This document shows, piece after piece, positions 4,086-54,059 of a DNA stretch of 64,000 nucleotides. The stretch comes from Bacillota bacterium (GTDB lineage: Bacteria; Bacillota; Sulfobacillia; JACIYH01), in contig JBFLXJ010000033.1 of NCBI GenBank assembly GCA_040757085.1, positions 28,751-92,750 on the forward strand. The letters run 5' to 3'. Each line of letters starts with the position of its first letter. Position 1 is the first letter of the stretch. The notes beneath the pieces are model-generated. The model was given only the letters and a program-made list of their open reading frames with translations. It had not been told where the DNA came from and did no database searches. The position numbers and the translations under genes are program-made.

Positions 4086-4173
4086 TGGTGCCGAAGGTGG
4101 GACTCGAACCCACACGGGCCTTGCGCCCACGGCGCCCTGAACACCGCGTGTCTACCTATTCCACCACTTCGGC
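4086..4173 (-). tRNA. tRNA-Leu(CAG), type II with long variable arm, CCA encoded
   Basis: The reverse complement folds as follows. Acceptor stem GCCGAAG/CTTCGGC. Anticodon stem CGGTG/CGCCG with loop TTCAGGG, giving anticodon CAG. Variable arm GGGCGCAAGGCCC. T-arm GTGGG-TTCGAGT-CCCAC. Discriminator A followed by CCA. Confidence 0.8.
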
Positions 4174-20519: not shown

Positions 20520-20607
20520 GCCGGAGTGCTGGAACGGGCAGACGGGTCCGCCTCAAAAGCGGATGGGGTCAATCCCCGTGTGGGTTCGATTCCCACCTCC
20601 GGCACCA
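20520..20607 (+). tRNA. tRNA-Leu(CAA), type II, CCA encoded
   Basis: Acceptor stem GCCGGAG/CTCCGGC. Anticodon stem TCCGC/GCGGA with loop CTCAAAA, giving anticodon CAA. Long variable arm. T-arm TGGGT-TCGATTC-CCACC. ACCA, then a T6 run. Confidence 0.85.
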
Positions 20608-23872: not shown

Positions 23873-26800
23873 CTAACTCACCTCTCCGGCGGCGTAGACG
23901 GCGCCATCCCCCAGCAAATCCTGTAACTCCCACCGCAACTCGTTGGTGTCCTCCACCCAGAGGCCCGGCTCCACCAAAATCGCCTTCTTCCGCCTCACGA
24001 AGTCCACCCGAACGGGCAAACTGCCCGGGTACCGGGCAAGAATGCCCTTCAATTCGCGGAGCGCTTTTTCCTCCTGCTCGACCGTGCGGAGTTCCACCAC
24101 CAGGGAACCCGGGCAGGCCAGGGGGATTACCTCTTCGGCCATCAGCTTGACGACCCGCTGTCCCTCCTCCCCTTCGGATCGCTGCACGGTACCCTTCACC
24201 AGGACAACAGCATCCTTCACCAGGCACCCCCGGAACTTCTCGAAAACCCGCGGAAACACCACCACCTCGACGTGCCCCGACGTATCTTCCAGTTCCACGA
24301 ATCCCATCGGTTCCCCTGCCCTGGTGCTGATGCGCTTTACACCCAGCACCACGCCCCCTACCGTAGCCGTGCTGCCGTCGGTCGCATTGTGCAGGTCTGC
24401 GCAACGGTGGGTGGCACCCTTCTCCAGGTGGGGACGGAAGGGGTCAAGGGGATGGCCCGAGAGATAAAGACCCAGCACTTCTTTTTCCATGGCCAGCAGC
24501 GCGGCCTGGGGAAACTCGGGCACATCCGGGAGCAGATCCTGCGCGGCAAATTCTTCTGCACCCAGGTCGAAGAATGAGAGCTGCCCTGCACCGCGTGCTT
24601 CACCCTGCCCCCGCTCCAGGGCCTGATCCAGGATGCCCAGAAGCTGGGCTCGCTTCGCCCCCAGGCTGTCGAATGCCCCTGCCTTGATGAGGCTTTCCAC
24701 TGCCCGCCGGTTGAGGTGGCGGGTGTCCACCCGCTCGCAGAAGTCGTGCAGGGAACGGAAGGGGCCCTGCTCTCGCGCCCGCAGGATGGACTCGATGGCC
24801 GCCCGCCCCAGGTTCTTGATGGCACCCAGCCCGAAGCGAATGGCATCCCGGCCGCTTGCGTCCTTCTCGATGCTGAATTCCAGTTCCCCCCGGTTGACGT
24901 CCGGAGGCAGCAGAGTCACTCCCAACCGCCGGCATTCTTCGACGTATACCGCCACGTCGTCGGTGGAGTCCATGACCGACGTCAGCAGTGCCACCATGTA
25001 CTGCAGGGGATAATGCGCCTTGAGGTATGCGGTACGATACGCCAGCAAGGCGTACGCCGCGGCATGGCTACGGTTGAAGGCATAGCCGGCGAACCGCTCG
25101 ATGGCCGAGAAAACCTGCTCCGCCACCTGGCGGTCTACCCCGCGGCTGACGGCTCCCTCGATAAAACGCACCCTCTGCGCCGCCACCAGTTCCGGCTTCT
25201 TCTTGGCCATCCCGCGCCGGAGGATGTCAGCCTGGGCCAGGGTGAATCCCGCCAGTTGAGATACCACCTGCATGACCTGTTCCTGGTATATCATCACGCC
25301 GTAAGTATCCTTCAGGATGGGCTCCAGGCTAGGATGAAGATACCGTGCCCCCTCCTGCTTGGCCCGCTGGTATTCGGGTATCTGTTCCATAGGCCCGGGG
25401 CGCACCAGGGCCACGATGGCCACAATGTCTTCGAAGGTGGCGGGGCGCAGCTGGCGCAGGAGATCCTGAACCCAGCCCGCTTCCAGCTGGAATATGCCCA
25501 GTGTTTCCCCCCGGCTCAGGAGAGCGTACACGGCCGGATCATCCAGCGGGATGGTGTGCCAGTCCACTTCCTCTCCTGTCCTGCCCACCAGCTTCACGGC
25601 GTGGTCGATGACGGTGAGGTTGCGCAGGCCCAGGAAATCCATCTTGAGGAGGCCCAGTTCCTCCAGCACCTCCATGGGGAACTGGGTCACCACCGCCCCC
25701 TCGGGGGTCTTCTGCAGGGGCACCAGGTCGATCAGCGGTTCGGGCGCGATGACCACCCCGGCGGCGTGGACGGAAGCGTGCCGGGGCATGCCCTCGATCT
25801 GGCGGGCCAGGTCCACCACCTCGCGCACTTCCTCCCGGCCTCGATATGCCTGGGCCAGGTCGGGACTGGTCTCCAGGGCCTGGTCCAGGGTGATACCCAG
25901 CACGGGAGGCACCATCTTGGCGATGCGGTCCACTTCCCCGTAGGGGAGCCCCAGGGCGCGGCCCACATCGCGGATGGCCGCGCGTGCCTTCATGGTGCCG
26001 AAGGTGACGATCTGGGCCACGCAATCCTGCCCGTACTTTCCCACCACGTACCGGATCACTTCGTCCCGCCGCTCGAAGCAGAAGTCGATGTCCATGTCCG
26101 GCATGGAAACCCGCTCGGGGTTGAGGAAACGCTCAAAAAGCAGACCGTGGCGCAAAGGATCCACGTCCGTGATCCCCAGGACGTATGCCACCAGGCTGCC
26201 GGCCGCCGACCCCCGCCCCGGCCCTACCGGGATACCGTGCTGCCGGGCGAACTCCACGAAGTCCCAGACGATGAGGAAATAACCGGGATAGCCCATGCGC
26301 TCGATCATGCTCAGTTCGTATTCCAGCCGCTCCATCACTTCGGGCGGGGCCTGGGGGTAACGCCGCGGCAGACGCTGGTAACAAAGGTGACGCAGGTAAG
26401 AAGCCTCGGTTTCCCCCTCGGGTACCGGGAACTGGGGCAGGTGAAGCTGCCCGAAGCGCAGTTCAACCTGGCAGTTCTCCGCTATCTCCACGGTGGCCCC
26501 CAGGGCCTCGGGCAACTCGCGGAAGAGGTGTCCCATCTCCTGGGGGGAGCGCAGGTAAAACTGGTCAGACCCGAAGCGCAGGCGTCCGGGATCATCCACC
26601 GTGCTCTGGGTCTGGATACACAGGAGCACGTCGTGCATGCGGGCGTCCGCCTGTTCCAGGTAGTGGACGTCATTGGTCGCCACCAGGCCCACGCCCATCT
26701 CCCTGGCAAGGCGCACCAGCTCCCGGTTGACCTGGCGCTGGGTGGGAAGGCCGTTCTCTTGCACTTCCAGGTAGAAGGAATCGGCCCCGAACAGGTCGCG

Positions 26801-27289
26801 GTAGCGGGCCACGATCTCCCGCGCTCGCGCCCCGTCCTCCAGGACGGCCCGCGGCACCTCTCCCGCCAGGCAGGCGCTGAGGGCGATGAGGCCCCCATGG
26901 TGCCTCTCCAGCAGTTCCCAGTCCACCCGGGGCCGGTAGTAGAATCCCTCCATGTGGGCCAGGGAAACGAGGCGCATGAGGTTGCGGTAACCTTGCTGGT
27001 CCCGGGCCAGGAGCACCAGGTGGTGGGGATCCTCGTCCACCCTGGGTTGGCGGTCGTGCCTGGTGCGGCGGGCGACGTACACCTCGCATCCCAGGATGGG
27101 TTTGACACCGTGCTGCAGGCAGGCCTGGTAGAAGGGCACCACCCCGTACATGACACCGTGGTCGGTTATGGCCAGGGCGCTCATCCCCATGGCCGCAGCC
27201 CGGGGGACCACCTGCTCAATGCGAGCTGCCCCGTCCAGCAGGCTGAATTCGGTGTGCAGATGGAGGTGATTGAATGCGGCGGCACCCAT
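23873..27289 (-). CDS. dnaE: DNA polymerase III alpha subunit (DnaE type)
   Basis: The PHP-domain N-terminus reads FNHLHLHTEFSLLDGA. The length is ~1140 aa. An ATG at 27289 follows AAGGGGGAG. Confidence 0.9.
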   Translation of the reverse strand: MGAAAFNHLHLHTEFSLLDGAARIEQVVPRAAAMGMSALAITDHGVMYGVVPFYQACLQHGVKPILGCEVYVARRTRHDRQPRVDEDPHHLVLLARDQQGYRNLMRLVSLAHMEGFYYRPRVDWELLERHHGGLIALSACLAGEVPRAVLEDGARAREIVARYRDLFGADSFYLEVQENGLPTQRQVNRELVRLAREMGVGLVATNDVHYLEQADARMHDVLLCIQTQSTVDDPGRLRFGSDQFYLRSPQEMGHLFRELPEALGATVEIAENCQVELRFGQLHLPQFPVPEGETEASYLRHLCYQRLPRRYPQAPPEVMERLEYELSMIERMGYPGYFLIVWDFVEFARQHGIPVGPGRGSAAGSLVAYVLGITDVDPLRHGLLFERFLNPERVSMPDMDIDFCFERRDEVIRYVVGKYGQDCVAQIVTFGTMKARAAIRDVGRALGLPYGEVDRIAKMVPPVLGITLDQALETSPDLAQAYRGREEVREVVDLARQIEGMPRHASVHAAGVVIAPEPLIDLVPLQKTPEGAVVTQFPMEVLEELGLLKMDFLGLRNLTVIDHAVKLVGRTGEEVDWHTIPLDDPAVYALLSRGETLGIFQLEAGWVQDLLRQLRPATFEDIVAIVALVRPGPMEQIPEYQRAKQEGARYLHPSLEPILKDTYGVMIYQEQVMQVVSQLAGFTLAQADILRRGMAKKKPELVAAQRVRFIEGAVSRGVDRQVAEQVFSAIERFAGYAFNRSHAAAYALLAYRTAYLKAHYPLQYMVALLTSVMDSTDDVAVYVEECRRLGVTLLPPDVNRGELEFSIEKDASGRDAIRFGLGAIKNLGRAAIESILRAREQGPFRSLHDFCERVDTRHLNRRAVESLIKAGAFDSLGAKRAQLLGILDQALERGQGEARGAGQLSFFDLGAEEFAAQDLLPDVPEFPQAALLAMEKEVLGLYLSGHPLDPFRPHLEKGATHRCADLHNATDGSTATVGGVVLGVKRISTRAGEPMGFVELEDTSGHVEVVVFPRVFEKFRGCLVKDAVVLVKGTVQRSEGEEGQRVVKLMAEEVIPLACPGSLVVELRTVEQEEKALRELKGILARYPGSLPVRVDFVRRKKAILVEPGLWVEDTNELRWELQDLLGDGAVYAAGEVS

Positions 27290-27363
27290 CAGCTTTGCTC
27301 CCCCTTTGACGATGAATACCACGGGTGATAAAGTTTGGGAGGAAGAGAAGGGGGGACTCACCC

Positions 27364-40063: not shown

Positions 40064-41497
40064 CTACCGCCGGGAGACCAGGGCCGGGTCCACGTAACCT
40101 ACCGTACCGCTTTGCCCCACCAGCAACAGGCCCTCCTGGCCCGTATCCTCGGGGTCAAAGAAGTACACGGACCGAAGGGGGTCCCCCAGTTCGGGAAAGC
40201 TCAGCCGCCGCACCCTGTAGACACCCGGGCGGAACCAGGCAGCCATCCCCCGTGAAGGGGTCCATTCCACGACCGCCACGTCGTTCCCCTCCGGGTGCAC
40301 GCCCGCCAGGGTACCCGCGGCGGAAGCCACCGCCGTCCCGGGCCGGAAGATGGGTGCCGGCAGCCGCCGCCAGCGCAACTGGCCGTCCCGCCCCTCCCCC
40401 AGATAGGACACCTCTTGCTGCCCCGCTCGCACCGCCAGATACACGGTGAGGCCCCTGTCACCCCGGCACGCCGCCAGGTCCAGCACGTCGGGATGCTCGG
40501 GCGCCAGGTAGGGCCGCCCACCCACCCCCTCGAAACTCAGGCTTCCCTGCTGCCAGGCAAGCAACCACACCTGAACCTCGTAACCGCCCCTCTGCCGCAG
40601 GGCGCCTGCGGCGAGCAGGGTCGTCACCGTGCCACCCCCCGGTACCGGGCACAGGCGGTGCACCTGGGCGGGCAAGCTGAGGGCAGCCGGGTCCCCGTTC
40701 AGCCGCAAGCCCCCCTGGGAATCCACCCACAGGGCCACGGGAGTCTCTTTCCCAGGCAGCAGTACCAGACTGCCCGCCCGGCCGGCGGCGGGCAGCAGGT
40801 TCTCCCCGCCCACGAGCGAACCTCCCACGTAGCGCCACACCCTGCCCGTGGCCGTCACCACCACGGCCTGTCCGGATACCTCGCCCGCATAGGTCAGGGG
40901 TTCGGAAAAGCGGACCTCTTCCATTTCCGGCACTGCGGTCAGGCCCGCCGGCTCCGCCGTCCCCCGCGCCCAGACGGTGTTCCCGTCCTCCTTCGCCAGT
41001 GCGGACCGTGCCTGGGCAGCCGCCGGCGTGCCCAGCACGCGAAGCAGGCGCACGCGGGCAGGCGCTGTTTTGGCGTAGTAACTTGCCTGGGCCTTCCCTT
41101 CCGGCGCCGGGGCCAACCCGGCGCGACCTGCAACAGCCTCATCGCGCACGGACGGTACAGGAGCACGGGCGGTCAGGACCAAGCCTCCCTGGCCCCCGGG
41201 ATCCTCCACCACCGGTGGCACCTGGGCCCGCAGGTCGACCACCACACCCCCCAGCATGACCAGGATTGCGGCTGCAACCGCCGCCACCCGGAGGGCGCGT
41301 ACCACCCGGCGTCGCCCCTCGCGGGCCACAATGGCCGGCACCTGAGCCAGCACGCGGCGCCGCATGGTAACATCGAAAACCAGGTCCGGGGGCACCAGCC
41401 CGTCGGCCCATACCCGCATGTGCTCAAGGAGTTCCTCGCACGAACCCGAGCAGGGGCTCTCAATCTTCCTGAATTCCTGGCCCCGCTCCCCCATCAT
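40064..41497 (-). CDS. anti-sigma factor with a zf-HC2-like N-terminus and a large (~350 aa) extracytoplasmic domain
   Basis: An ATG at 41497 overlaps the sigma stop as ATGA. The N-terminus MMGERGQEFRKIESPCSGSCEELLEH has the H/C signature. One TM segment, ALRVAAVAAAILVMLGGVVV, is present. Confidence 0.55.
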   Translation of the reverse strand: MMGERGQEFRKIESPCSGSCEELLEHMRVWADGLVPPDLVFDVTMRRRVLAQVPAIVAREGRRRVVRALRVAAVAAAILVMLGGVVVDLRAQVPPVVEDPGGQGGLVLTARAPVPSVRDEAVAGRAGLAPAPEGKAQASYYAKTAPARVRLLRVLGTPAAAQARSALAKEDGNTVWARGTAEPAGLTAVPEMEEVRFSEPLTYAGEVSGQAVVVTATGRVWRYVGGSLVGGENLLPAAGRAGSLVLLPGKETPVALWVDSQGGLRLNGDPAALSLPAQVHRLCPVPGGGTVTTLLAAGALRQRGGYEVQVWLLAWQQGSLSFEGVGGRPYLAPEHPDVLDLAACRGDRGLTVYLAVRAGQQEVSYLGEGRDGQLRWRRLPAPIFRPGTAVASAAGTLAGVHPEGNDVAVVEWTPSRGMAAWFRPGVYRVRRLSFPELGDPLRSVYFFDPEDTGQEGLLLVGQSGTVGYVDPALVSRR

Positions 41498-42066
41498 GAG
41501 GTCCAGCCCTCTTTCTCCAGCAGGGTCTTGAGCATCAACCTGGCCCGGTGCAACCGGGATCGTATCGTGGCGGGAACTACCCCCATGGCCCGGGCGATCT
41601 CCACGGTGTCGTAGCCACTCCAGTAGTGCAACATGACCACGTCCCTGTATACGGGCGGCAACCTTCTCACCATGGCAAGCATCCGCTGCTGCTGCACCCG
41701 GCGCCATCCCCCCTCCCCGTCCTCTCCCACGGCAGGAAGGGGATCTGCCAGCAGCATGGTCCGGCCGGCCGTCCGCCGCCGGTCACGACACAGGTTGAGA
41801 CAAATGCGACCCAGCCAGGCCCCCAATTGACATTCTCCCCTGAACTGACCCCCCTTCGCCAGGGCCCGCAGGAACGTTTCCTGGGCCACGTCTTCCGCCT
41901 CGTGACGGTCTCCCAGAGTAAGGTACGCCAGGCGCAGGATATAGTCGCCGTACCGCTGCATAGCCTGCTCCACTGCCCGGGCGGGATCACACCGGTACAC
42001 CCTCAGCCATTCCGCCGCCTCGGGCACCATCTTCCCGCCCGCTCCCGGCGCGCCGTTCCTACTCAT
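41494..42066 (-). CDS. ECF-type RNA polymerase sigma factor
   Basis: Region 2 reads DVAQETFLRALAK. Region 4 reads TVEIARAMGVVPATIRSRLHRARLML. The ATG at 42030 may be the true start if the predicted ECF promoter at 42070-42096 is real. Confidence 0.75.
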   Translation of the reverse strand: MSRNGAPGAGGKMVPEAAEWLRVYRCDPARAVEQAMQRYGDYILRLAYLTLGDRHEAEDVAQETFLRALAKGGQFRGECQLGAWLGRICLNLCRDRRRTAGRTMLLADPLPAVGEDGEGGWRRVQQQRMLAMVRRLPPVYRDVVMLHYWSGYDTVEIARAMGVVPATIRSRLHRARLMLKTLLEKEGWTS

Positions 42067-42444: not shown

Positions 42445-43884
42445 TCACGAGCGGCCGCGCAAATCGGCCAGGTGGCCACGCAGGTAAAAACGGGGATTGA
42501 GGCTACACCTGACGCCCGAAGCGATACGCCAAATGTGGGGCAGGGACACCCGGCCCGCCATCACGTTCCGCAATAGGATGAACAGGTTGGGGATCAGGTA
42601 CCAACTGCTGCGCACGGCAGTACGGTAAAGCGACGTGAACTCCCGATAAAAATCCTCCAGCTTGAGCCGGGTTGGGATAACGCTGTGGAACAGGTCGTAC
42701 AACTCGTAGTTAGTGGTGATCAGGCGGTCTCTCCACTTGCGGTAAAGCTCGGTTCCCGGCAGGGGAGTCAGCACGGCAATGGAGGGCGCCGAAATCCGGT
42801 ACTTGCGCAGAAACGCACGCAGCTTTTCGAACTGACGGTGGGTGTAATCCGGATCCACGATGAAGGACGGGGTCACGGCTATTCCCAGGCGCCGTAACAC
42901 GTCCAGGGCTCGCACGTTGTTTTCCACCGTATTCTTCTTGTTCAGGACGTGCAGTTCTTCGTCATCCACCTTTTCCATGCCGATGAACACCCGGTACAGC
43001 CCGACTTCCTTCCACAGGCGCAGGAGGTCGGGGTGCTTGACCACCGTGTCGCTCCGGGCCTGGACGGTATAGCGGTGGCGGATGCGGTTACGCTTCAACT
43101 CCTGGGCGATGGCTTCCGCCCGCGGGACGCTCAGCAGGAAGTTGTCATCGGTGATAAGGACATACTCTTCCCGCACCCCATCCAGTTCCTCCGCCACCCG
43201 GGCCGGACTCTTGACCCGGACCGTTCCCCGGTAGAACTTCCAGACCGAGCAAAAGGTGCACCGGTAGGGGCAGCCCCGGGCCGTTTCCACCGAGGCCATG
43301 GGTTTTTGCAGACCCAGGTAGTAGAACCGGCGGTAAGGAGCCGTCAGTTGACGGGCCACCGGAGACAGATCATCCAGGGCCGCCGGGGGCCTTTCGCCCG
43401 TCCACACCTGTCCCGAGGAGGTGTTCAGCACCAGGCCCGATACGTCCCGCAGGCACCCGCCGCGGGCCACCGTGTCCACCAACTCCCGGGCCGTGAGTTC
43501 ACCCTCGCCCACCACCACGGCGTCCACCTCGGTCCCGGAGAAGTCTTCCGGACAAAGGGAGGCGTGGTGCCCGCCCACGAACACGAAGCAATCGGGCCGC
43601 CGTTCCTTCACCCGCCGTGCCACCGCTCTGGTGCGGTAAACGTCCATGGTAAACCCGCAGCTGATCCCGCACAGTTGGGGTTCGAACTCTGCCAGGGCGC
43701 GATCGAGCCACCGCGGCGCCAAAAGGTCCACCAGGTTCACCTCGTGAGGGGGACCCCAGCGCCGGTCAAGGAGGGCCCCGGCCACTGCCTCCAGACCCAG
43801 CGGCTCCACCACCGCAGTACTTCCGAAGCCCACCCCCCCCGCGGGGCGGGGCTGTACCAGCAGGACTCTCGCCACCTGCACCAC
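42445..43884 (-). CDS. B12-binding domain-containing radical SAM protein
   Basis: An N-terminal Rossmann-like B12-binding region is followed by the CxxxCxxC cluster (CPYRCTFC). It lies 29 nt downstream of nrdJ. Confidence 0.75.
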   Translation of the reverse strand: MVQVARVLLVQPRPAGGVGFGSTAVVEPLGLEAVAGALLDRRWGPPHEVNLVDLLAPRWLDRALAEFEPQLCGISCGFTMDVYRTRAVARRVKERRPDCFVFVGGHHASLCPEDFSGTEVDAVVVGEGELTARELVDTVARGGCLRDVSGLVLNTSSGQVWTGERPPAALDDLSPVARQLTAPYRRFYYLGLQKPMASVETARGCPYRCTFCSVWKFYRGTVRVKSPARVAEELDGVREEYVLITDDNFLLSVPRAEAIAQELKRNRIRHRYTVQARSDTVVKHPDLLRLWKEVGLYRVFIGMEKVDDEELHVLNKKNTVENNVRALDVLRRLGIAVTPSFIVDPDYTHRQFEKLRAFLRKYRISAPSIAVLTPLPGTELYRKWRDRLITTNYELYDLFHSVIPTRLKLEDFYREFTSLYRTAVRSSWYLIPNLFILLRNVMAGRVSLPHIWRIASGVRCSLNPRFYLRGHLADLRGRS

Positions 43885-43913: not shown

Positions 43914-46900
43914 TTAGCCGCAACGGGAGAAACCGCAGAAATGGCAGACCAGGCACCCGCTTTCGTGAGTGAGGTGGCCACCGCACTCGGGGCAGGCACC
44001 CATGTGGTTGTCGACGGGATCGAGACTCACTGCCATCTGATCCCAGGAATGCTGGCCGACACTGCCGGGGTTGGGAGAAATGCTCTCCCGGGCCGTATTC
44101 TCTCGGGCCGCAGCCTTCCGTTTCAGATAGCGCTCCAGCACAATGCCGATGGCGTCCGGGCAGGAAAGCACCATTCCACCGCCTTCCACCCAGGCAGGCG
44201 ACGGGCAGCGGATGCCCCGCAATTCCTTCACGACAGACTCCGGCCGGACTCCCGAACGCAACGCCAGCGATATGAGCCGGGCCACCGCCTCGGACTGGGA
44301 TGACGCACAGCCGCCCGACTTGCCCATGGAGGCGAACACCTCGCACAGGCCGTACTCGTCCTCATTGATGGTCACGTACAGGTTCCCGCAGCCCGTCCTT
44401 ATGCGCTCGGTGCTGCCGTGGGTGACCGATGGCCTGGCCCTTGGCGTAATCCCTCCCCGGCCCCCCGCAGGCGCCGCCGCAAGCCGGGGCTCTGCCGCGC
44501 CTTCCCGCACCACCGGGCCGACGGCCGGGCGCTCTTCCGCGCTCTCTCCCCCGGCTCGCACGGGCTCCTCGGGCGCCACACGCACCTGGCCCGGAACACC
44601 GCCCGAAACAGCCTGAGAGCGCCCGAGTTCCGCCTGCCGCGGCAGCTCCCCGGGCGGCTCCTCTCCCTTCCGCACCGTGCCCACGTTCAGCACCTGCTCC
44701 TCCCGACTCCGGTCACGATATATGGTCACGCCCTTGCACCCCAGTTCGTACGCCAGGAAGTAAACCTTCGCCACGTCCTCGCGCGTGGCCTCGTTGCACA
44801 TATTCACCGTCTTGGAGACGGCATTGTCCGTGTGCGTCTGAAAAGCGGCCTGCATGCGGATGTGCCATTCGGGATCGATCTGCAGGGCGGTGACGAACAC
44901 CCGCTGCCACCGCTCGGGGACGCCGGGTAGCCCCCGGACCGAGCCGCGCTCCGCCACCAGCCGCATCAGCTCCGGGCTGTAAAACCCCTCTCTCCTGGCC
45001 ACTTCCTCGAAGATCGGGTTGACTTCGACCAGTTGCTGGCCTTCCAAAACCTTGCGGAAGAAGGCCAGGGCGAACAGGGGCTCGATACCGGAAGAGCAAC
45101 CCGCGATGATGCTGATGGTGCCCGTGGGTGCAATAGTGGTGAGGGTGGCGTTCCGCACGGGAGGACCGTCCCGGAACACGCTGTGGGAGAAATTTGGAAA
45201 CGCCCCCCGTTCCCGTGCCAGCTGGCGAGTTGCCTCCCGTGCCTCGCGGTGGATGAACCCCATCACCTCGTCAGCCAGGCGCAGTGCCTCGGAGGAATCG
45301 TAGGGGATCCCCAGCTTGATGAGCATGTCCGCCCAGCCCATCACGCCCAGGCCGATCTTGCGGTTGCCCCGGGCCATCTTTTCGATTTCGGGCAGGGGGT
45401 ATTTGTTTGCGTCTATGATGTTATCCAGAAAACGGACGCCCAGACGGGTAATCCGGGAAAGCTCATCCCAATCTATCGCCTCCCTGGCGTAGGCCAGCAG
45501 TTCCTCGCCCCTCAAATCCCAAACCCGCAGTTTTTCCCATGACTCCGCGCCCGGCCTCACCGCAAGCGAAAGGTTGATGGACCCCAGGCAGCACGCCTCG
45601 TACGGGAGCAGAGGTTGCTCCCCGCAGTTGTGGGCACATATCCCGTTGGCGTCAAAGGCGTTGACGCCGGGGACCCGCACGTCGTAGACCTCCTCGACAC
45701 CGTCCTCCTTGACCGCCAGGACGGTGGCCACGAACCGCTCGCGGTTCAACGTGCGCCGGCAGGCACGGAGGAGCAATGCGAGCTTCCGCGCCTTGACGCT
45801 ATCGCCAAAGCCAATCCGTTCCGCAAACACGGCCACGTTATCGCCGCTGATGACTAACTCGTGCCGGGTCGTGCCCCTGTACTCTCTGGCCCGTCCTTTG
45901 CCATCCGGCATCAGCCGGGCAGCAGGCGGCCGCCGCTCCTCATGGATGGTGCTCACCATGCCCAGCCTGAGCAGCATGCGCTGGACCAAACGCAAAAGAT
46001 CAAGGCTGCTCTGGGACAGGCGGATGCTCACGCCCTTTTCCTGGCTCCCCTGGACCGAGCCGGCGCAGTCAAAGAGGCCGCGCAGGAAGCCCCGGTAGCC
46101 CTCTGACGAAGCGCGTTCGATCTCCGGGGAAACCGCCTTGGCGCCCGGACGCATCCCCATCCGCCCCGCCAGCACCTCCAAAGCAGCCGAATTGAGGCGG
46201 AAGTCCCCGCAACCGGTGAGCGGTACCCACCCGGTGAAGTCCATGCGGTGCGGCACTGCCTCCGCGCACCCCAGCGCAAGCCGCATGGCCGCGGACGCTC
46301 CCCCATGCGCGGGCGGGCCGTCGACCGCTTCCCACACCGCTCCCCCTCCTGCCGCCACGCCGCCAGACGCTTCCTCCCCGGAGCACACAGCCAGGACAGC
46401 TGCATTTTTCTTGAGCACTCCGTCGCCGGCCAGCAGGCCGAGCAGATAACCCTCACCCTCGCTCAACTCTCCGGTCCAGCCGGGAAGCGACCGATGGTCG
46501 TGCAGGACGATCCGGTCGCCGGGCTTGAGTTCCCCCGCCCTGACCCACTCGCAGCCAATACGGTAGCGCGCACGGTCGACCAAGCGCAGGACCCGATGGT
46601 CGGCGGTGAGCCGGACGCTGTACCCCTCCCGGGTGGATAGCCTCACGACCGGCCTGGTCGCTGTCCTGAAAAAGCCCTCTTTCCCGGTCTTGTAGCACAC
46701 GCCGTTGATAACTGCTTCGAAAGGCCGGCCCACCAGTTCCCGCACCTGGCGCGGGCCTTCACCCGTCATCACCCAGGTATCACCGGTGACACAGGGGTTG
46801 GTGCTCTCGATCTCGCCCAGTTCGGGGGTGGGGTTGTCCCGGTTCAGGCGATCCAGAAAGACGATGCCCGGCTCCCCGTTCCGCCACGCCCCCTCCACGA

Positions 46901-47810
46901 TACGGTCGAAAACATCGCGCGCCCGCAGGCGACCCACTGCCTCCCCGGTACGGGGGTTGACCAGGTCGTACTCACGGTCTTCCCGCACCGCACGCATGAA
47001 CTCTTCCGTAATCCCCACCGAGATGTTGAAGTTGGTGATGTCGGCGTTGTCCTGCTTGCAGGTGATGAACTCCATAATGTCGGGGTGATCCACCCGCAAG
47101 ATACCCATATTCGCTCCGCGACGCGTGCCCCCTTGCTTTATGGCTTCGGTGGCGGCGTTGAATACCCGCATGAAGGACACCGGCCCGGAGGCAACGCCAC
47201 CGGTGGTACGCACCACGTCGTTCTTGGGGCGAAGCCGCGAGAAGCTCATGCCCGTGCCGCCCCCCGATTGGTGGATGAGGGCAGCATGTTTGATACTTTC
47301 AAAAATCCCCACCAGGGAGTCGTCCACGGGCAGGACGAAGCAGGCCGACAACTGGCTCAGTTCCCGCCCCGCATTCATCAGGGTGGGCGAGTTGAACATG
47401 AACCTCTTCTCCGTCATGGCGTCGTACAGCCGATCCTGGAAAGAGCGGATGCCGGCACTTTCTCGCTCCATCACCCTGGCCAGTTCGTCAAAAGGCACCC
47501 TCATGTGCCCGTGCCTGTCCAGCCATATGTAGGCGCGCTGCAACATCTCCCAATCCCAGCGGGTCAGTCCCTCCAGTACTCCCAGCCGCTCCGGCCACCC
47601 CGCCGGCGGAGTCCCCGGTTCGCCATGGGGAGTCTGACCTCCCTCGGGATCATATACCTCAACCAGATACAGACCTTCCACCAGTGCGATGTTCCGTGCT
47701 ACCCGCCGGAACAACTGCTCCGGAGTCTCCACCACCTTCCCGCTGGCATCCTTGGCCAGGTACCGCTTCCGCAACACCACCAGGCCGTTCTCACTCAACT
47801 GCAGTTCTGC
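43914..47810 (-). CDS. nrdJ: adenosylcobalamin-dependent (class II) ribonucleoside-diphosphate reductase, interrupted by an intein and carrying a C-terminal zinc-finger tail
   Basis: The N-terminus reads ENGLVVLRKRYLAKD. The catalytic region is FNSPTLMNAGRELSQLSACFVLPV. The catalytic loop STNP/CGEQPLLPYEACCLGSINLS is split by ~389 aa. The C-terminus has CPECGG...CLVCHFCGFSRCG. I prefer the GTG at 47810, 5 nt after GGGAGGGGAG. Confidence 0.85.
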   Translation of the reverse strand, partial: AELQLSENGLVVLRKRYLAKDASGKVVETPEQLFRRVARNIALVEGLYLVEVYDPEGGQTPHGEPGTPPAGWPERLGVLEGLTRWDWEMLQRAYIWLDRHGHMRVPFDELARVMERESAGIRSFQDRLYDAMTEKRFMFNSPTLMNAGRELSQLSACFVLPVDDSLVGIFESIKHAALIHQSGGGTGMSFSRLRPKNDVVRTTGGVASGPVSFMRVFNAATEAIKQGGTRRGANMGILRVDHPDIMEFITCKQDNADITNFNISVGITEEFMRAVREDREYDLVNPRTGEAVGRLRARDVFDRIVEGAWRNGEPGIVFLDRLNRDNPTPELGEIESTNPCVTGDTWVMTGEGPRQVRELVGRPFEAVINGVCYKTGKEGFFRTATRPVVRLSTREGYSVRLTADHRVLRLVDRARYRIGCEWVRAGELKPGDRIVLHDHRSLPGWTGELSEGEGYLLGLLAGDGVLKKNAAVLAVCSGEEASGGVAAGGGAVWEAVDGPPAHGGASAAMRLALGCAEAVPHRMDFTGWVPLTGCGDFRLNSAALEVLAGRMGMRPGAKAVSPEIERASSEGYRGFLRGLFDCAGSVQGSQEKGVSIRLSQSSLDLLRLVQRMLLRLGMVSTIHEERRPPAARLMPDGKGRAREYRGTTRHELVISGDNVAVFAERIGFGDSVKARKLALLLRACRRTLNRERFVATVLAVKEDGVEEVYDVRVPGVNAFDANGICAHNCGEQPLLPYEACCLGSINLSLAVRPGAESWEKLRVWDLRGEELLAYAREAIDWDELSRITRLGVRFLDNIIDANKYPLPEIEKMARGNRKIGLGVMGWADMLIKLGIPYDSSEALRLADEVMGFIHREAREATRQLARERGAFPNFSHSVFRDGPPVRNATLTTIAPTGTISIIAGCSSGIEPLFALAFFRKVLEGQQLVEVNPIFEEVARREGFYSPELMRLVAERGSVRGLPGVPERWQRVFVTALQIDPEWHIRMQAAFQTHTDNAVSKTVNMCNEATREDVAKVYFLAYELGCKGVTIYRDRSREEQVLNVGTVRKGEEPPGELPRQAELGRSQAVSGGVPGQVRVAPEEPVRAGGESAEERPAVGPVVREGAAEPRLAAAPAGGRGGITPRARPSVTHGSTERIRTGCGNLYVTINEDEYGLCEVFASMGKSGGCASSQSEAVARLISLALRSGVRPESVVKELRGIRCPSPAWVEGGGMVLSCPDAIGIVLERYLKRKAAARENTARESISPNPGSVGQHSWDQMAVSLDPVDNHMGACPECGGHLTHESGCLVCHFCGFSRCG
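45627..46793 (-). mobile_element. intein (~389 aa) with a LAGLIDADG homing-endonuclease domain, inserted at the catalytic cysteine codon of nrdJ
   Basis: The insert starts with CVTGDTWV and contains LTADHRV (a TxxH-like block). Two LAGLIDADG-like blocks are present, LLGLLAGDGVL and GFLRGLFDCAGSV. It ends VYDVRVPGVNAFDANGICAHN, directly before a Cys. The flanks rejoin as the canonical STNPCGEQPLL. Confidence 0.8.
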
Positions 47811-47875
47811 CACTTCATCTCCCCTCCCCGTCCGGGCCCAACTCGCCTGCCTCATCCACCCCCTTCTTCCGCACC

Positions 47876-48487
47876 CTACCCCCCGCCCGCGCCACGCCCG
47901 CAATCGCCACTGCCGGGCCCCCCGCCGTGCGCGCTGGCCCCGCTGCCGCCGCCCCCACTCCCGCCGCCGCTGCCGTGGACCCCGCTGCCGTGGCTCCCGC
48001 TGCCCCCAAGACCGGGCGCTTCCTGTCCGCACTCGCGCTCCCGCAGCAGGCGCTGCACCTCCTCGGCAAACCGCCTAAGGTCGGCAAACTGCCGGTACAC
48101 GGAGGCAAAACGCACATAGGCCACCTCGTCCAGCTCCCGCAGGTGCTCCATCACCATCTCGCCGATGACCCTTGACTCCACCTCCCGCTCCCCCCGGGAG
48201 CGTAATTCCTTCTCGATATCCTGGACCACCGCATGCAGGCGCTCCGAAGGCACCGGGCGCTTCTCACACGCCTTCAGCAAACCGGCCAGGATTTTGCCGG
48301 AGTCGAAGCGTTCCCGGCGTCCATCCTTCTTGACCACCACCAGGGGGGGCTCGTCCACCTTCTCGTAAGTCGTGAAGCGGCGGTGGCAATCCTCACACTC
48401 CCGCCGCCTCCGGATGACGGTCCCGTCCTCGGTGGGGCGAGAGTCCAGAACCCTGCTCTCGGGAAACCCGCAGTACGGACACTTCAC
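47876..48487 (-). CDS. nrdR: transcriptional repressor NrdR with a ~50-aa Gly/Ser-rich C-terminal tail
   Basis: A GTG at 48487 gives the canonical N-terminus MKCPYCG...SRVLDSR (zinc ribbon) followed by an ATP-cone. The tail reads [36 protein letters not shown]. Confidence 0.8.
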
Positions 48488-48578
48488 GGTAAACACCTCA
48501 GGGCAGCAAATCTGGTTGCGTGACGCAGGGACGCGCGGCGGTATCCGGCCTGGCGAGCCATACTACCGCACTAAAGTT

Positions 48579-49049: not shown

Positions 49050-49805
49050 TCAGCCGTGCTTTACGGACTTGCGGAGGTACAGGGCACTGACCTCGTTCAG
49101 GAATACCACCCGGGGATCATCCTCGGGGATGTCCCGGAGGGGCAATAATCCCTCTCCTTTCCGCCTGATGCCAGTATAACTCAGATCCTCCGGGCGGATG
49201 GTCACCAGTTTGACCTCGTGCTGCTCGCTAAGACCCCTCTTCATGAGGTCCCGTGCCATCGTTTGCCTGGCCTTGTCAGTATCCGGGTACGCTTCGGTCG
49301 GGCCGGAGTGCTGCGGGCCGTTGAATTCGAAGGCCACGCCACAGGTGTACCATCTATCATATTCCATCCTTTCGCCTGTTAGGGGGTTGACCAGGAAACC
49401 GGGGCGGGCGTTGTCGGTGTAATCATCCGAATCAACGGTCAGAGTGAGCCATTCCTTCATGATGGCCTCTCCCTTGAACTCCGCGCGGTCGAGCCGCCTC
49501 CGAATAAGGTCCAGATCCCGGCGGATGCGATCCAGCTCGACGTCGTGCAGGATGAACACCGTTCGCCTCGTGCGCCGCACATATTCGAACTCCAACCAGC
49601 CCCGCTCCGCCAACATCCGCAGGTAACTGCGCATGCTGGTCGGGCTACGGACGCCGACCATCTTCATGAGTTCTTCGCGCGTAGGTGAACACCGCCTGTT
49701 TGCCCGAGAGCAGAAACTGGCCAGCACCAGGTAAGTAACCTTGGCCTCGGGTGGCAACGCCGGATCCCTCACCAAACCAACTGGCACATACACCCAGTTG
49801 TGCAC
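49050..49805 (-). CDS. hypothetical protein with an N-terminal winged-HTH-like region and a C-terminal DUF559/Vsr-like (PD-(D/E)xK-fold) domain
   Basis: The wHTH-like part reads TYLVLASFCSRANRRCSPTREELMKMVGVRSPTSMRSYLRMLAERGWLEF. The C-terminal part reads GVAFEFNGPQH...DKARQTMARDLMKRG...EVKLVTIRPEDL and resembles DUF559, with N in place of the usual catalytic D. I prefer the GTG at 49805, 9 nt after GGGAGGCAAGGAGGG. Confidence 0.5.
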   Translation of the reverse strand: MHNWVYVPVGLVRDPALPPEAKVTYLVLASFCSRANRRCSPTREELMKMVGVRSPTSMRSYLRMLAERGWLEFEYVRRTRRTVFILHDVELDRIRRDLDLIRRRLDRAEFKGEAIMKEWLTLTVDSDDYTDNARPGFLVNPLTGERMEYDRWYTCGVAFEFNGPQHSGPTEAYPDTDKARQTMARDLMKRGLSEQHEVKLVTIRPEDLSYTGIRRKGEGLLPLRDIPEDDPRVVFLNEVSALYLRKSVKHG

Positions 49806-50002
49806 CTGGCACACCCCTCCTTGCCTCCCATAATTTAACACAGGCGCTGCCCTTTCCTCCCACACCGTCCAGACCGTCAGCCCGGTAACTGTGTTGTCCG
49901 GCAAAACACCGTCACCCAGGTGACACTACACCCCTGTATGCTTTACATAAAACCGGTCCCCCAGGTTATGTCCCCGGGTATGGCGCCCAACTGCCGCACA
50001 CC

Positions 50003-51447: not shown

Positions 51448-51620
51448 GGGCAGACCTCCTTTCCGATGCGGAATGGGAGCCGCCGGAGCCCAGGCGCACC
51501 ACAGGCAAAATCGGCACCCGGAGCAGGACTGCGGTGTCAGAGGGGCGAAGTCCCAAGCATGCATATCGCCCCCGGGTCCGCACGTGAGCGCCTGCCGCGG
51601 GGGAAATGGAGGTGGCGCCG

Positions 51621-54059
51621 ATGCGACTGGTGCTGGGCGTCGACGCGGGGGCTACCAAGACCCTGGCGGTGGTGGCTGACCTGGCCGGCCAGGTCAGGGG
51701 CTGGGGCCGGGCAGGATGCGGGAACTTTCAGGTAACCGGGACCCGGGCACCCCGCGAGATAAGCCGGGCCATCCGCCGGGCCTTGGCCATGGCCGGTGCG
51801 GGGCCTTCCCACGTAGTCGCCGCCTACTACGGCATAGCAGGGGCGGACCGGCCAGCCGACTTTGCCTATATCCATTCTTTCCTGGAACCCATCAACCCTG
51901 CCCCGCGCTGGGAAGTGGAGAACGATGCCACCATCGCCCTCGTTGCCGCCACCCGGCGCCGCCTGGGCGTGGTGGTGGCATGCGGGACCGGATTCAACTG
52001 CCTGGCATTCCACCCCGGCGGGACCCGCCTGCAGGTGGGGGGACTGGGTTACATCTTCGGCGACTTCGCGGGGGCAGGCCAGATCGGCGCCGAAGTGATC
52101 CGGGCAGCCACCCGGGCATACGACGGGCGGGGCCCGGCCACCGCCCTGCTCGATCTCCTCAGGCAGCAAATTGACCTGGACGACCCCTCCGACCTGGCAC
52201 CCATGATGTACGGGGCAGCAACCCGCTCCTTGCACCCGGGGGAACTGGCTCCCCTGGCCTTCCGGGCCGCCGCCGCAGGCGATCCGGTGGCGCACGAGAT
52301 CCTGCACCGCACGGCCGAGGAGATGGCCCTGGCCACAAAGGTTGCCATCGAGCGGGCAAGACTCCACACCCTCCCCAGCGTGCCGGTAGTCCTGGCCGGG
52401 GCACTGCTGCAGGGCGAACCGGGCCGGTTGCTGGTCCCCATTATGACCGGTATGATCACTAGCGCCTGTCCCCAGGCGGAGATCCACGTCCTGCAGACGG
52501 AACCCGCGCTGGGTGCGGTGATAGCGGCGCTGGAACTGGCCGGAGTACAGGTTGACGACTCCCTCTCCCGGACGCTGCAGTCCACCTGGGCGAGCCGCAC
52601 ACGGTCCCGCGCCGGCGCAAACGGGACTGCAGATGGCCCCCAGCCGCTGCCGGGGACGAACGGCAGCGCGGAGGCCCGCACCCTGGATGGGCCGAGGGCG
52701 GAGCGAGGCCTCAAGGTGGCGGTGGTAGGCGGGGGGAGCACATACACTCCCGAACTGGTATCAGGACTGGTGGAAGCCAGGGACGCCTTCCCCCTGCGCG
52801 AGCTTGCCCTCATGGACCCCGATTATGCACGGTTGGAGGCGGTGGGAGGACTGGCGGGGCGCATGCTTGAGGACGCCGGCCTGGGAAATGCCCTCCGTCT
52901 TGTCAGCACCCTCGAGGAAGCCCTGTCAGGTGCAGACTTCGTAATCGTGCAGGTGCGGGTCGGGGGGATGACAGCCCGGATGCTGGACGAGCGCCTCCCG
53001 CTGGAACTCGGCTGCATCGGGCAGGAGACGGTGGGAGCGGGCGGGATCTCCTGTGCCCTGCGTACCGTCCCGGTGATCCTGAACATCGCCCGCCAGGTGG
53101 AGCGGCTCTGTCCCGCGGCATGGCTCATCAACTTCACCAATCCCTCCGGGCTGATCACCGAGGCCCTGTACCGCCACGCCGACGTACGGGCGGTGGGCCT
53201 GTGCAACGTCCCCATCACCATGACGAAGGCCCTGGCCGGCACCGCAGGCGTGGATGCGACAGGCCAGCAGGCGCCCCCTGAAGGCAGAGACGGGGAAAGC
53301 CTGCAGGTCGACCAGCCAGGAGTAGATGCAGGAAGGCTGCACGTGGACTACCGGGGCCTGAATCACCTGGGGTGGTTCGTGGGGGTCCGGGACGGCCACG
53401 GCCGGGACCTCATGCCGATCATTCTGTCCCGCTACCTGGAACAGGTGGCAGAACACACCAGGGTGGACTCCGACCTGATCACCGCCTGGAGAGCCATACC
53501 CAACCCCTATCTGCGTTACTATTGCCACCCTGACCGTGTGCTGGCCGAGATGAAGGCGTCCGCTCGCACCCGGGCAGAGGAGGTCATCGACCTGGAAAGG
53601 CACCTCCTGGAGATATACAGGAATCCCGCCGTCCGCCAACGCCCTCCCGAGCTGGACAGGCGGGGAGGCGCTTTCTATGCCCTCGCCGCAGTGGAACTGA
53701 TGCTGTCTCTGGCCGGGATACGGCCGGGGGAGCACGTGGTCTCCGTACCGCATGAAGGAAGGATGTCCGACCTCCCCCCCGATGCGGTGGCCGAACTGAC
53801 CTGCCACGTGGACCGCGACCAGATCACCCCGGCGGTGGAAGGGGGCCTGCCGCCGGGCACAGCCGGACTGGTACGCACGGTCAAGGAGTGCGAATTACTG
53901 GCCATAGAAGCCGCAGTCAAGGGATCCCGCCCCCTCGCCTACCTCGCCCTCGCTTCCCACCCCCTGGTCCCCTCCGCCCAGGTAGCCCGGCAACTCCTCG
54001 ATCGCCTCCTGGCCGCCCACGCCGCATACCTGCCACCCGGCCTGCAGCCACGCCGCTAG
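51621..54059 (+). CDS. fusion protein: N-terminal BadF/BadG/BcrA/BcrD-type ATPase (N-acetylglucosamine-kinase-like) and C-terminal family 4 glycoside hydrolase
   Basis: The N-terminus LVLGVDAGATKTLAVV is an ASKHA-fold ATPase. After a low-complexity linker, KVAVVGGGSTYTPELV is the GH4 NAD-binding N-terminus, and CNVPITM...GLNHLGW follows. The ATG at 51621 sits 7 nt after GGAGGTGG. No stop separates the two domains. Confidence 0.7.
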   Translation: MRLVLGVDAGATKTLAVVADLAGQVRGWGRAGCGNFQVTGTRAPREISRAIRRALAMAGAGPSHVVAAYYGIAGADRPADFAYIHSFLEPINPAPRWEVENDATIALVAATRRRLGVVVACGTGFNCLAFHPGGTRLQVGGLGYIFGDFAGAGQIGAEVIRAATRAYDGRGPATALLDLLRQQIDLDDPSDLAPMMYGAATRSLHPGELAPLAFRAAAAGDPVAHEILHRTAEEMALATKVAIERARLHTLPSVPVVLAGALLQGEPGRLLVPIMTGMITSACPQAEIHVLQTEPALGAVIAALELAGVQVDDSLSRTLQSTWASRTRSRAGANGTADGPQPLPGTNGSAEARTLDGPRAERGLKVAVVGGGSTYTPELVSGLVEARDAFPLRELALMDPDYARLEAVGGLAGRMLEDAGLGNALRLVSTLEEALSGADFVIVQVRVGGMTARMLDERLPLELGCIGQETVGAGGISCALRTVPVILNIARQVERLCPAAWLINFTNPSGLITEALYRHADVRAVGLCNVPITMTKALAGTAGVDATGQQAPPEGRDGESLQVDQPGVDAGRLHVDYRGLNHLGWFVGVRDGHGRDLMPIILSRYLEQVAEHTRVDSDLITAWRAIPNPYLRYYCHPDRVLAEMKASARTRAEEVIDLERHLLEIYRNPAVRQRPPELDRRGGAFYALAAVELMLSLAGIRPGEHVVSVPHEGRMSDLPPDAVAELTCHVDRDQITPAVEGGLPPGTAGLVRTVKECELLAIEAAVKGSRPLAYLALASHPLVPSAQVARQLLDRLLAAHAAYLPPGLQPRR

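Follow-up and report, generated by a model that had tools for sequence, protein, structure and literature searches.

A class 1 intein at the putative radical-cysteine site of a Bacillota nrdJ gene, with an alanine in place of the second catalytic acid of its LAGLIDADG domain

INTRODUCTION

Ribonucleotide reductases (RNRs) are the second commonest hosts of bacterial inteins, with 211 inteins and the Firmicutes among the organisms that carry them (Novikova et al., PMC4760082). The most frequent insertion site for contiguous inteins in class I and class II RNRs (Dassa et al. 2009, PMC2677866) is also the point that is occupied in the gene described here, an nrdJ gene in a 64,000-nucleotide stretch (hereafter the window) of a Bacillota bacterium (assembly GCA_040757085.1; contig JBFLXJ010000033.1, positions 28,751 to 92,750 of the forward strand). 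An original prediction for this window had proposed a full-length LAGLIDADG intein in nrdJ and had noted that RNR active sites are intein hotspots, which agrees with the literature (PMC2677866, PMC4760082). We found that the insert is a class 1 canonical intein with a nested LAGLIDADG domain and that, rather than being a novel element, it is a further member of the known allele family at the thiyl-cysteine site of RNRs. The reading that we favor, with a probability of about 0.78, is that this intein lies immediately before the putative radical cysteine, is competent for splicing, and carries an endonuclease that is most likely unable to make a double-strand cut.

The closest described elements are the RIR1 inteins (InBase nomenclature), which lie N terminal to the thiyl-radical cysteine of RNRs (PMC2677866). 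The intein of the window shares with them the insertion point (TNP / C...HN / CGE) and the combination of a HINT domain with a nested LAGLIDADG domain, and it is 40 to 66% identical to members from Proteobacteria, Bacillota, Desulfobacterota, Nitrospirota, and Archaea. It differs from them in that even its nearest relatives reach only 57 to 66% identity, in a Gly/Ala loop at residues 141 to 157, and in having Ala instead of Asp in block E. The PhoVMA intein from the V-ATPase of Pyrococcus horikoshii (PDB 7qst; PMC8966425) is comparable in another respect, as it too retains the endonuclease fold but misses catalytic acid(s), which places the two elements at conceptually equivalent points of the homing cycle. 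However, PhoVMA occupies a different host and site and has lost both acids in a deletion by which the second helix became shorter, whereas the intein of the window appears to have lost the second acid by substitution. A third set of comparable elements, the active LAGLIDADG inteins PI-PfuI (Pfu RIR1-1; PDB 1dq3), PI-SceI (1vde), and TliVMA (7qsu), shares the two-domain fold and the chemistry of blocks A, B, F, and G, but these proteins are only 12 to 17% identical to the present intein, possess additional domains with DNA-recognition or accessory roles, and retain both catalytic acids. Like the intein of the window, PI-PfuI resides in an RNR.

RESULTS

The host gene encodes a class II RNR

As a whole, the protein encoded around the insert matches the NCBIfam model NF006417 with 1141.4 bits (cutoff, 961) and TIGR02504 (NrdJ_Z) with 714.6 bits (cutoff, 399.95). 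Judged by these curated equivalog thresholds, both of which it passes, the host protein is a class II (adenosylcobalamin-dependent) RNR. Pfam searches recovered the barrel (Ribonuc_red_lgC), the all-alpha domain (Ribonuc_red_lgN), and a TSCPD domain (residues 1136 to 1230). The C-extein continues after the +1 Cys with the remainder of the barrel, a low-complexity linker, the TSCPD domain, and a Cys-rich tail. The mechanically called open reading frame (ORF) runs on the minus strand from 43914 to 48032, and its 5' part overlaps nrdR in a different frame. Two start codons are candidates, a GTG at 47813, which is preceded by a GGAGG-like sequence, and an ATG at 47855; residue counts given here take 47813 as the start.

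Several features of the extein protein are noted in their own right. The linker between the barrel and the TSCPD domain comprises about 90 residues of low complexity rich in Pro, Gly, Ala, Glu, and Arg (precursor residues ~1043 to 1135; window ~44410 to 44690, minus strand), and the Cys-rich C terminus resembles a zinc ribbon (ACPECGG...CHFCGFSRCG). The N-terminal all-alpha domain carries an insertion of about 75 residues (residues ~45 to 120; window ~47450 to 47680, minus strand), and the 77-position Pfam profile PF00317 is spread over residues 5 to 152. The same insertion is found in one of the related loci that we compared (L001), and two others (L002 and L049) are without it.

The insert is an intein that splits the active-site loop

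Translation of the insert (45627 to 46793) on the minus strand yields 389 codons without a single stop, starting with CVTGDTWVMTGEG and ending in NGICAHN; a reading on the plus strand was ruled out by stop codons. It is preceded by ...TPELGEIESTNP, which ends in ELGEIESTNP, and followed by CGEQPLLPYEACCLGSINLS, so that the junctions in the precursor read STNP / CVTGDT...CAHN / CGEQPLL. The boundaries given in the original prediction proved exact to the base, the strand that it had left unstated is minus, and each of the motifs that it quoted (LTADHRV, LLGLLAGDG, GFLRGLFDCAGSV, the terminal HN, and the +1 Cys) lies at the expected position (Table 1).

Domain searches identified both the splicing and the endonuclease components of the insert, at scores that chance does not explain. 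On its own, it matched the Pfam families LAGLIDADG_3 (E = 1.9e-23; residues 233 to 328) and Intein_splicing (E = 1.4e-10), as well as intein_Nterm (32.3 bits; cutoff, 24.5; residues 1 to 69) and intein_Cterm (20.1 bits; cutoff, 15.6; residues 368 to 389), and curated thresholds were passed for all four. In a sequence search of the PDB, both ends of the intein aligned with the structures of the DnaB, GyrA, and RadA mini-inteins; full-length LAGLIDADG inteins were not recovered from the PDB by either single-sequence or profile searches, which returned mini-inteins and RNRs only.

Conceptual removal of the insert restores the contiguous NrdJ loop STNPCGEQPLL, as had been proposed, and this loop is contiguous in all 80 of the nearest NrdJ relatives. 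The conceptually spliced protein aligns with the structures of Thermotoga maritima NrdJ (E = 1.5e-119), which are likewise contiguous at the insertion point, and places the +1 Cys on Cys322 (motif ...STNPCGE...). We take Cys322 as the residue that bears the thiyl radical in the NPCGE finger loop, a motif that becomes complete in the protein of the window only after conceptual splicing. The alignment of the +1 Cys with Cys322 implies that the enzyme would need splicing for its activity, which agrees with the earlier proposal that the +1 residue is catalytic and that activity depends on splicing.

The splicing apparatus is conserved

An alignment of 32 sequences revealed that the residues central to splicing chemistry are retained in the intein of the window: T63 and H66 of block B, like the penultimate H388, show no variation, and at least 90% of the sequences share D371, N389, and the +1 Cys. 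At none of the 38 conserved columns of the splicing regions (25 N terminal and 13 C terminal) does the intein deviate. An AlphaFold2 model computed from the same alignment is confident (predicted local distance difference test [pLDDT], 90.8; predicted template modeling score [pTM], 0.89) and displays a HINT fold with a two-helix LAGLIDADG core, in keeping with the pseudodimeric alpha-beta fold of these endonucleases. Foldseek searches with this model retrieved, as the best matches in the PDB, TliVMA (E = 1e-17), PI-PfuI, PI-SceI, PhoVMA (at rank 5), and PI-TkoII, with E values between 1e-17 and 1e-12 for TliVMA, PI-PfuI, and PI-SceI; the free-standing I-DmoI and I-Tsp061I endonucleases ranked after the inteins, and the Mxe GyrA intein was also matched. 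The best reading of these residues and of the predicted fold is that the intein is splicing competent.

The second catalytic acid of the endonuclease is replaced by alanine

In LAGLIDADG enzymes, the catalytic acid that binds metal immediately precedes the last Gly of the motif, where the helix reaches its C terminus, as exemplified by D20 of I-CreI, D218 and D326 of PI-SceI, and D21 and E117 of I-DmoI. In the model of the intein, the two LAGLIDADG helices span residues 112 to 124 and 230 to 244, so that D124 and A244 mark their C-terminal ends. The first of these positions is ordinary, since among 111 homologues the column of Asp124 holds Asp in 91 and Glu in 15 (acidic in 106 of 111). The second is not: the column of Ala244 holds Asp in 117 of 120 homologues, Asn in two, and Ala in one. 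At the DNA level, block E reads ...gac tgc gcc ggc..., that is, D242-C243-A244-G245. The acidic residue visible in the block GFLRGLFDCAGSV is D242, two residues ahead of the catalytic position, which holds Ala244.

A search of the PDB with the isolated endonuclease domain (E <= 10) returned one weak match, the engineered E117A mutant of I-DmoI (PDB 5a0w; E = 2.4), which we used for the motif register only. In that register, Asp124 falls on D21 and Ala244 on residue 117, with motif 2 aligned as AFIKGLYVAAG in I-DmoI and GFLRGLFDCAG in the intein. I-DmoI differs in being free standing and intron encoded, and the sequence alignment is weak, with the register fixed only by the motifs and the fold match.

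The closest relative of the intein, a metagenomic copy (L081), has FDCDG where the intein of the window has FDCAG, so that a single GAC-to-GCC change suffices to explain Ala244. A compensated frameshift from FDADG to FDCAG was considered and rejected, as the DNA and the FDCDG of this relative show that one A-to-C substitution is enough. Across the whole intein, deviations at columns that are at least 90% conserved number 5 of 87 (W137C, T222S, F232G, D244A, and Y345C), all of them in the endonuclease domain, which matches the family at 44 of its 49 highly conserved positions (D124, K128, and K253 among them). A general decay of the domain was rejected, because the five deviations fall inside the range of zero to eight seen in other family members. 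The Gly/Ala-rich loop mentioned above (window 46323 to 46373, minus strand) is lineage specific, no aligned homologue having it, and is the sole segment of the model with a pLDDT below 50.

Blocks C and E are the ones that carry the acidic catalytic residues (Beyer and Iwaï 2022, PMC8966425). In the PhoVMA intein, which is without its catalytic acids, a homing-site substrate remained uncut, and grafting the residues back restored cleavage (PMC8966425). On comparative grounds, the endonuclease of the window is best read as catalytically crippled, with both LAGLIDADG helices kept but the second acid missing, and this copy of the intein is probably no longer mobile. Here our analysis departs from the original prediction, in which the acidic residues of both blocks were stated to be present and the endonuclease to look intact: block E carries Ala244 at a position that is Asp in nearly all homologues. 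The suggestion that the intein may still home is correspondingly unsupported, the second catalytic acid being replaced at the position that aligns with E117A of I-DmoI.

Relatives, distribution, and spread

A protein search with the intein recovered 243 matches at E <= 1e-5, the best of which is 57% identical. Nearly all bear annotations as fragments of NrdJ or the name "LAGLIDADG family homing endonuclease," and their hosts include Alpha-, Beta-, and Gammaproteobacteria, Desulfobacterota, Nitrospirota, Firmicutes, ANME-1 and DPANN archaea, and others. At least 60 database proteins hold a homologous intein, 40 to 66% identical, at the same insertion point, and wherever the junctions are present in homologues (dozens of matches) they read ...TNP / CVT(A/G)DT...HN / CGEQPL.... 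A few reductases of another clade, with junctions of the form LNP / C...HN / CGEI, contain a homologous intein at the equivalent point. A scan of metagenomes yielded the closer copy mentioned above (L081), which occupies the same site and is 66% identical in the intein, against 52% in the N-extein and 48% in the C-extein; further copies (L083 to L087) are 50 to 54% identical in the intein and 30 to 44% in the exteins. This higher identity of the inteins than of their exteins, combined with a sporadic distribution, is the signature expected of horizontal spread by homing, and the comparison indicates that the family as a whole spreads horizontally.

Scanning genomes of species representatives with the spliced extein, we found that the 80 nearest NrdJ genes are 53 to 64% identical and come mostly from metagenome-assembled genomes (MAGs) of Bacillota, Clostridia, Desulfobacterales, and Omnitrophota. 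The insertion site is empty in every one of them, with a gap of zero at the junction; a cruder count of empty junctions by regular expression gave 74 of 80. No NrdJ above ~64 to 71% identity to that of the window was detected in the genome collection. One of the related genes, L048 from an uncultured Clostridia MAG (CAYYDM010000008.1), has the junction ...ESTNPGGEQPLL..., in which Gly replaces the thiyl-radical Cys; this could reflect a sequencing error or an inactive paralogue.

The GC content at third codon positions (GC3) is 0.80 in the intein and 0.79 to 0.80 in the exteins, in a window with an overall GC content of 0.67. The host-like GC3 implies that this copy is not a recent arrival, and recent acquisition was rejected on this basis. 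The best reading is that the intein has long been resident in its host.

Genomic neighborhood

The window is a stretch of ordinary bacterial chromosome. NrdR, encoded directly upstream of nrdJ, is the usual repressor of RNR genes; the version in the window has 206 residues. Its Zn-ribbon and ATP-cone domains extend to about residue 139, and a tail of some 60 residues rich in Gly, Ser, and His follows; a look-up of the exact protein sequence returned no record. On the other side, the gene for a B12-binding radical SAM protein may be cotranscribed with the B12-dependent reductase. Among the other genes of the window, Pfam identified two ABC exporters, DnaE, PolA, an AcrB-type pump, and a family 4 (GH4) glycosidase. 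An ORF of 817 residues (51606 to 54059, plus strand) combines a BadF/BadG/BcrA/BcrD-type ATPase (residues 10 to 308) with a family 4 glycoside hydrolase (residues 370 to 788). The two domains may be genuinely fused, or mechanical ORF calling in GC-rich sequence may have joined two separate genes. Two ORFs on the minus strand, 49050 to 49904 (284 residues) and 40064 to 41707 (547 residues), have no Pfam match at E <= 1e-5.

DnaE and PolA are frequent intein hosts in other bacteria. In the window, DnaE (23873 to 27361, minus strand; 1162 residues) and PolA (10674 to 13442, minus strand; 922 residues) show their normal Pfam domains and no match to intein families. An Rfam scan of the window recovered only two tRNAs (Table 1); the surroundings of nrdJ gave no match to a riboswitch or to any other RNA.

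Table 1. Coordinates of the nrdJ intein, its host gene, and neighboring features in the window
Feature	Position	Strand	Description
nrdJ precursor	43914..47813	-	1299 codons + stop, intein included; class II, B12-dependent RNR
N-extein	46794..47813	-	340 residues; ends ...ELGEIESTNP; alignment with T. maritima NrdJ extends through ...STNP
Intein	45627..46793	-	389 residues, Cys1 to His388-Asn389; translation, Pfam/NCBIfam, AlphaFold2, Foldseek
C-extein	43917..45626	-	570 residues; opens with the +1 Cys, which falls on residue 322 of T. maritima NrdJ
N-terminal splicing (HINT) region	46479..46793	-	Residues 1-105; intein_Nterm; block A Cys1, block B TxxH
Cys1 codon	46791-46793	-	Block A
LTADHRV motif	46590-46610	-	Block B
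T63 codon	46605-46607	-	Block B
H66 codon	46596-46598	-	Block B
LAGLIDADG endonuclease domain	45759..46478	-	Residues 106-345; Pfam LAGLIDADG_3, Foldseek I-DmoI/I-Tsp061I
LAGLIDADG motif 1 (block C)	46419..46445	-	LLGLLAGDG; catalytic Asp124 present
LAGLIDADG motif 2 (block E)	46059..46088	-	FLRGLFDCAG; Ala244 at the catalytic position
Block E motif as quoted earlier	46053-46091	-	GFLRGLFDCAGSV
Ala244 codon	46062-46064	-	GCC
C-terminal splicing region	45627..45758	-	Residues 346-389; blocks F and G (VYDVRVPGVNAFDANGICAHN); intein_Cterm
Asn389 codon	45627-45629	-	Last residue of the intein
+1 Cys codon	45624-45626	-	First residue of the C-extein
nrdR	47876..48496	-	Directly upstream of nrdJ; Pfam Zn_ribbon_NrdR + ATP-cone
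B12-binding + radical SAM gene	42445-43884	-	Begins 30 bp 3' of the nrdJ stop
tRNA gene	4089-4173	-	85 nt; Rfam; long-variable-arm type by length
tRNA gene	20520-20604	+	85 nt; Rfam; long-variable-arm type by length

DISCUSSION

Proposed splicing and persistence of the intein

On the basis of the conserved residues, we propose that the precursor of 1299 residues splices itself after translation by the standard class 1 pathway, which has four steps. Cys1 would undergo an N-S acyl shift, the +1 Cys would attack the resulting thioester, and Asn389 would cyclize, whereupon the exteins would be joined. The product would be a 910-residue NrdJ with the loop STNPCGEQPLL, whose radical Cys is the former splicing nucleophile, and the ligated exteins would be expected to yield a junction peptide ...IESTNPCGEQPLL.... 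The unspliced precursor would lack activity, its finger loop at the center of the barrel being split by 389 residues. At the DNA level, the fused intein-less junction, ...ACCAACCCC / TGCGGCGAGCAG..., is the presumed homing substrate.

With respect to the endonuclease, the GAC-to-GCC change appears to have put Ala in the place of the catalytic Asp in the second LAGLIDADG helix, leaving an enzyme that is most likely unable to make the double-strand break that homing needs and that at best nicks one strand; this copy would be immobile, or at most a weak nickase. With its host-like composition and its full set of conserved splicing residues, it appears to be late in the homing cycle. The splicing residues would be kept because an essential enzyme requires splicing, and the intein would persist because an imprecise deletion in the active-site loop would destroy the reductase, an argument for persistence that has been summarized for the homing cycle in general (PMC8966425).

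Some observations weigh against this explanation. The difference between Asp and Ala rests on a single base, so that an error in sequencing or assembly, or a minor variant, is conceivable. Work on PI-SceI, I-AniI, and I-DmoI indicates that LAGLIDADG mutants with a single active site can keep nicking, so mobility may be lowered rather than abolished. Moreover, the number of deviations in the endonuclease domain lies inside the family range, the domain as a whole is not broadly decayed, and the remainder of it, K128 and K253 included, is conserved.

Alternative explanations

The same retention of endonuclease features could be taken to mean that the intein is fully functional and mobile, with an intact endonuclease that still homes into empty nrdJ alleles. 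The domain is full length, has a confidently predicted fold, and agrees with the family at most of its conserved positions, D124 among them, and empty target sites are plentiful in related genes. This explanation is opposed by the state of the second catalytic position, which is Ala244 in place of the nearly universal Asp and matches the position of E117A in I-DmoI; PhoVMA without these residues did not cleave (PMC8966425), and a GC3 equal to that of the host speaks against a recent invasion. We consider it unlikely.

On an equal footing, and just as unlikely in our view, is the possibility that the codon read as Ala244 reflects faulty sequencing or assembly or is found only as a rare variant, the true codon being GAC (Asp) and the element an ordinary active member of its family. 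The codon is one base from the family consensus, and residues 243 and 244 correspond to Cys-Asp in the nearest relative. However, the sequence bears no sign of low quality, with the frame intact over all 1299 codons, and the other four deviations at conserved columns (W137C, T222S, F232G, and Y345C), likewise confined to the endonuclease domain, point to relaxed constraint on it.

A more novel possibility is that the intein is a natural LAGLIDADG nickase with a single active site, with low-level, less toxic homing by recombination that nicks stimulate, and/or a redox-gated switch in which a disulfide between Cys1 and the +1 Cys would keep the radical Cys of NrdJ inactive as long as conditions disfavor splicing; as a combined proposal, we rate this as quite improbable. 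Taken separately, co-option as a conditional switch (for instance, a redox switch), in which the Cys1-Cys+1 disulfide or contacts between extein and intein delay splicing and thereby gate NrdJ, strikes us as very unlikely. In its favor, both junction nucleophiles are Cys, the +1 Cys is the radical site, and some other reason for persistence would be consistent with the retention of an intein whose endonuclease is dead; conditional splicing is also documented for other inteins (PMC5790916, PMC4513877). Yet the argument is a general one with nothing specific to this intein, Cys at both positions is the commonest intein configuration, and the lethality of an imprecise deletion in the active site fully explains persistence.

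The least probable alternative, that the insert no longer splices and that nrdJ is a pseudogene or noncatalytic while another RNR elsewhere in the genome serves the cell, may draw only on the facts that splicing is a prediction here and that the analysis covered the window, but it is opposed by the presence of all defining splicing residues without a deviation at any of the 38 conserved splicing columns, by an uninterrupted frame of 3.9 kb whose exteins score above the NrdJ equivalog cutoff, and by nrdR directly upstream, as in functional operons.

Implications

Beyond annotation, the significance of the preferred explanation, a splicing-competent intein with a crippled endonuclease, is small, and it opens no new question. 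The locus should be annotated as a single intein-bearing nrdJ gene; neither a gene fusion nor a split gene is the right description, and the same holds for a free "LAGLIDADG endonuclease," the label that many relatives bear in databases. As the junctions of this family are of the NP/CGE type, it could supply splicing domains that tolerate such a junction. For the biology of the family, the locus would be a natural example of a stage in the homing cycle at which splicing is under selection and the endonuclease is starting to decay through one point mutation.

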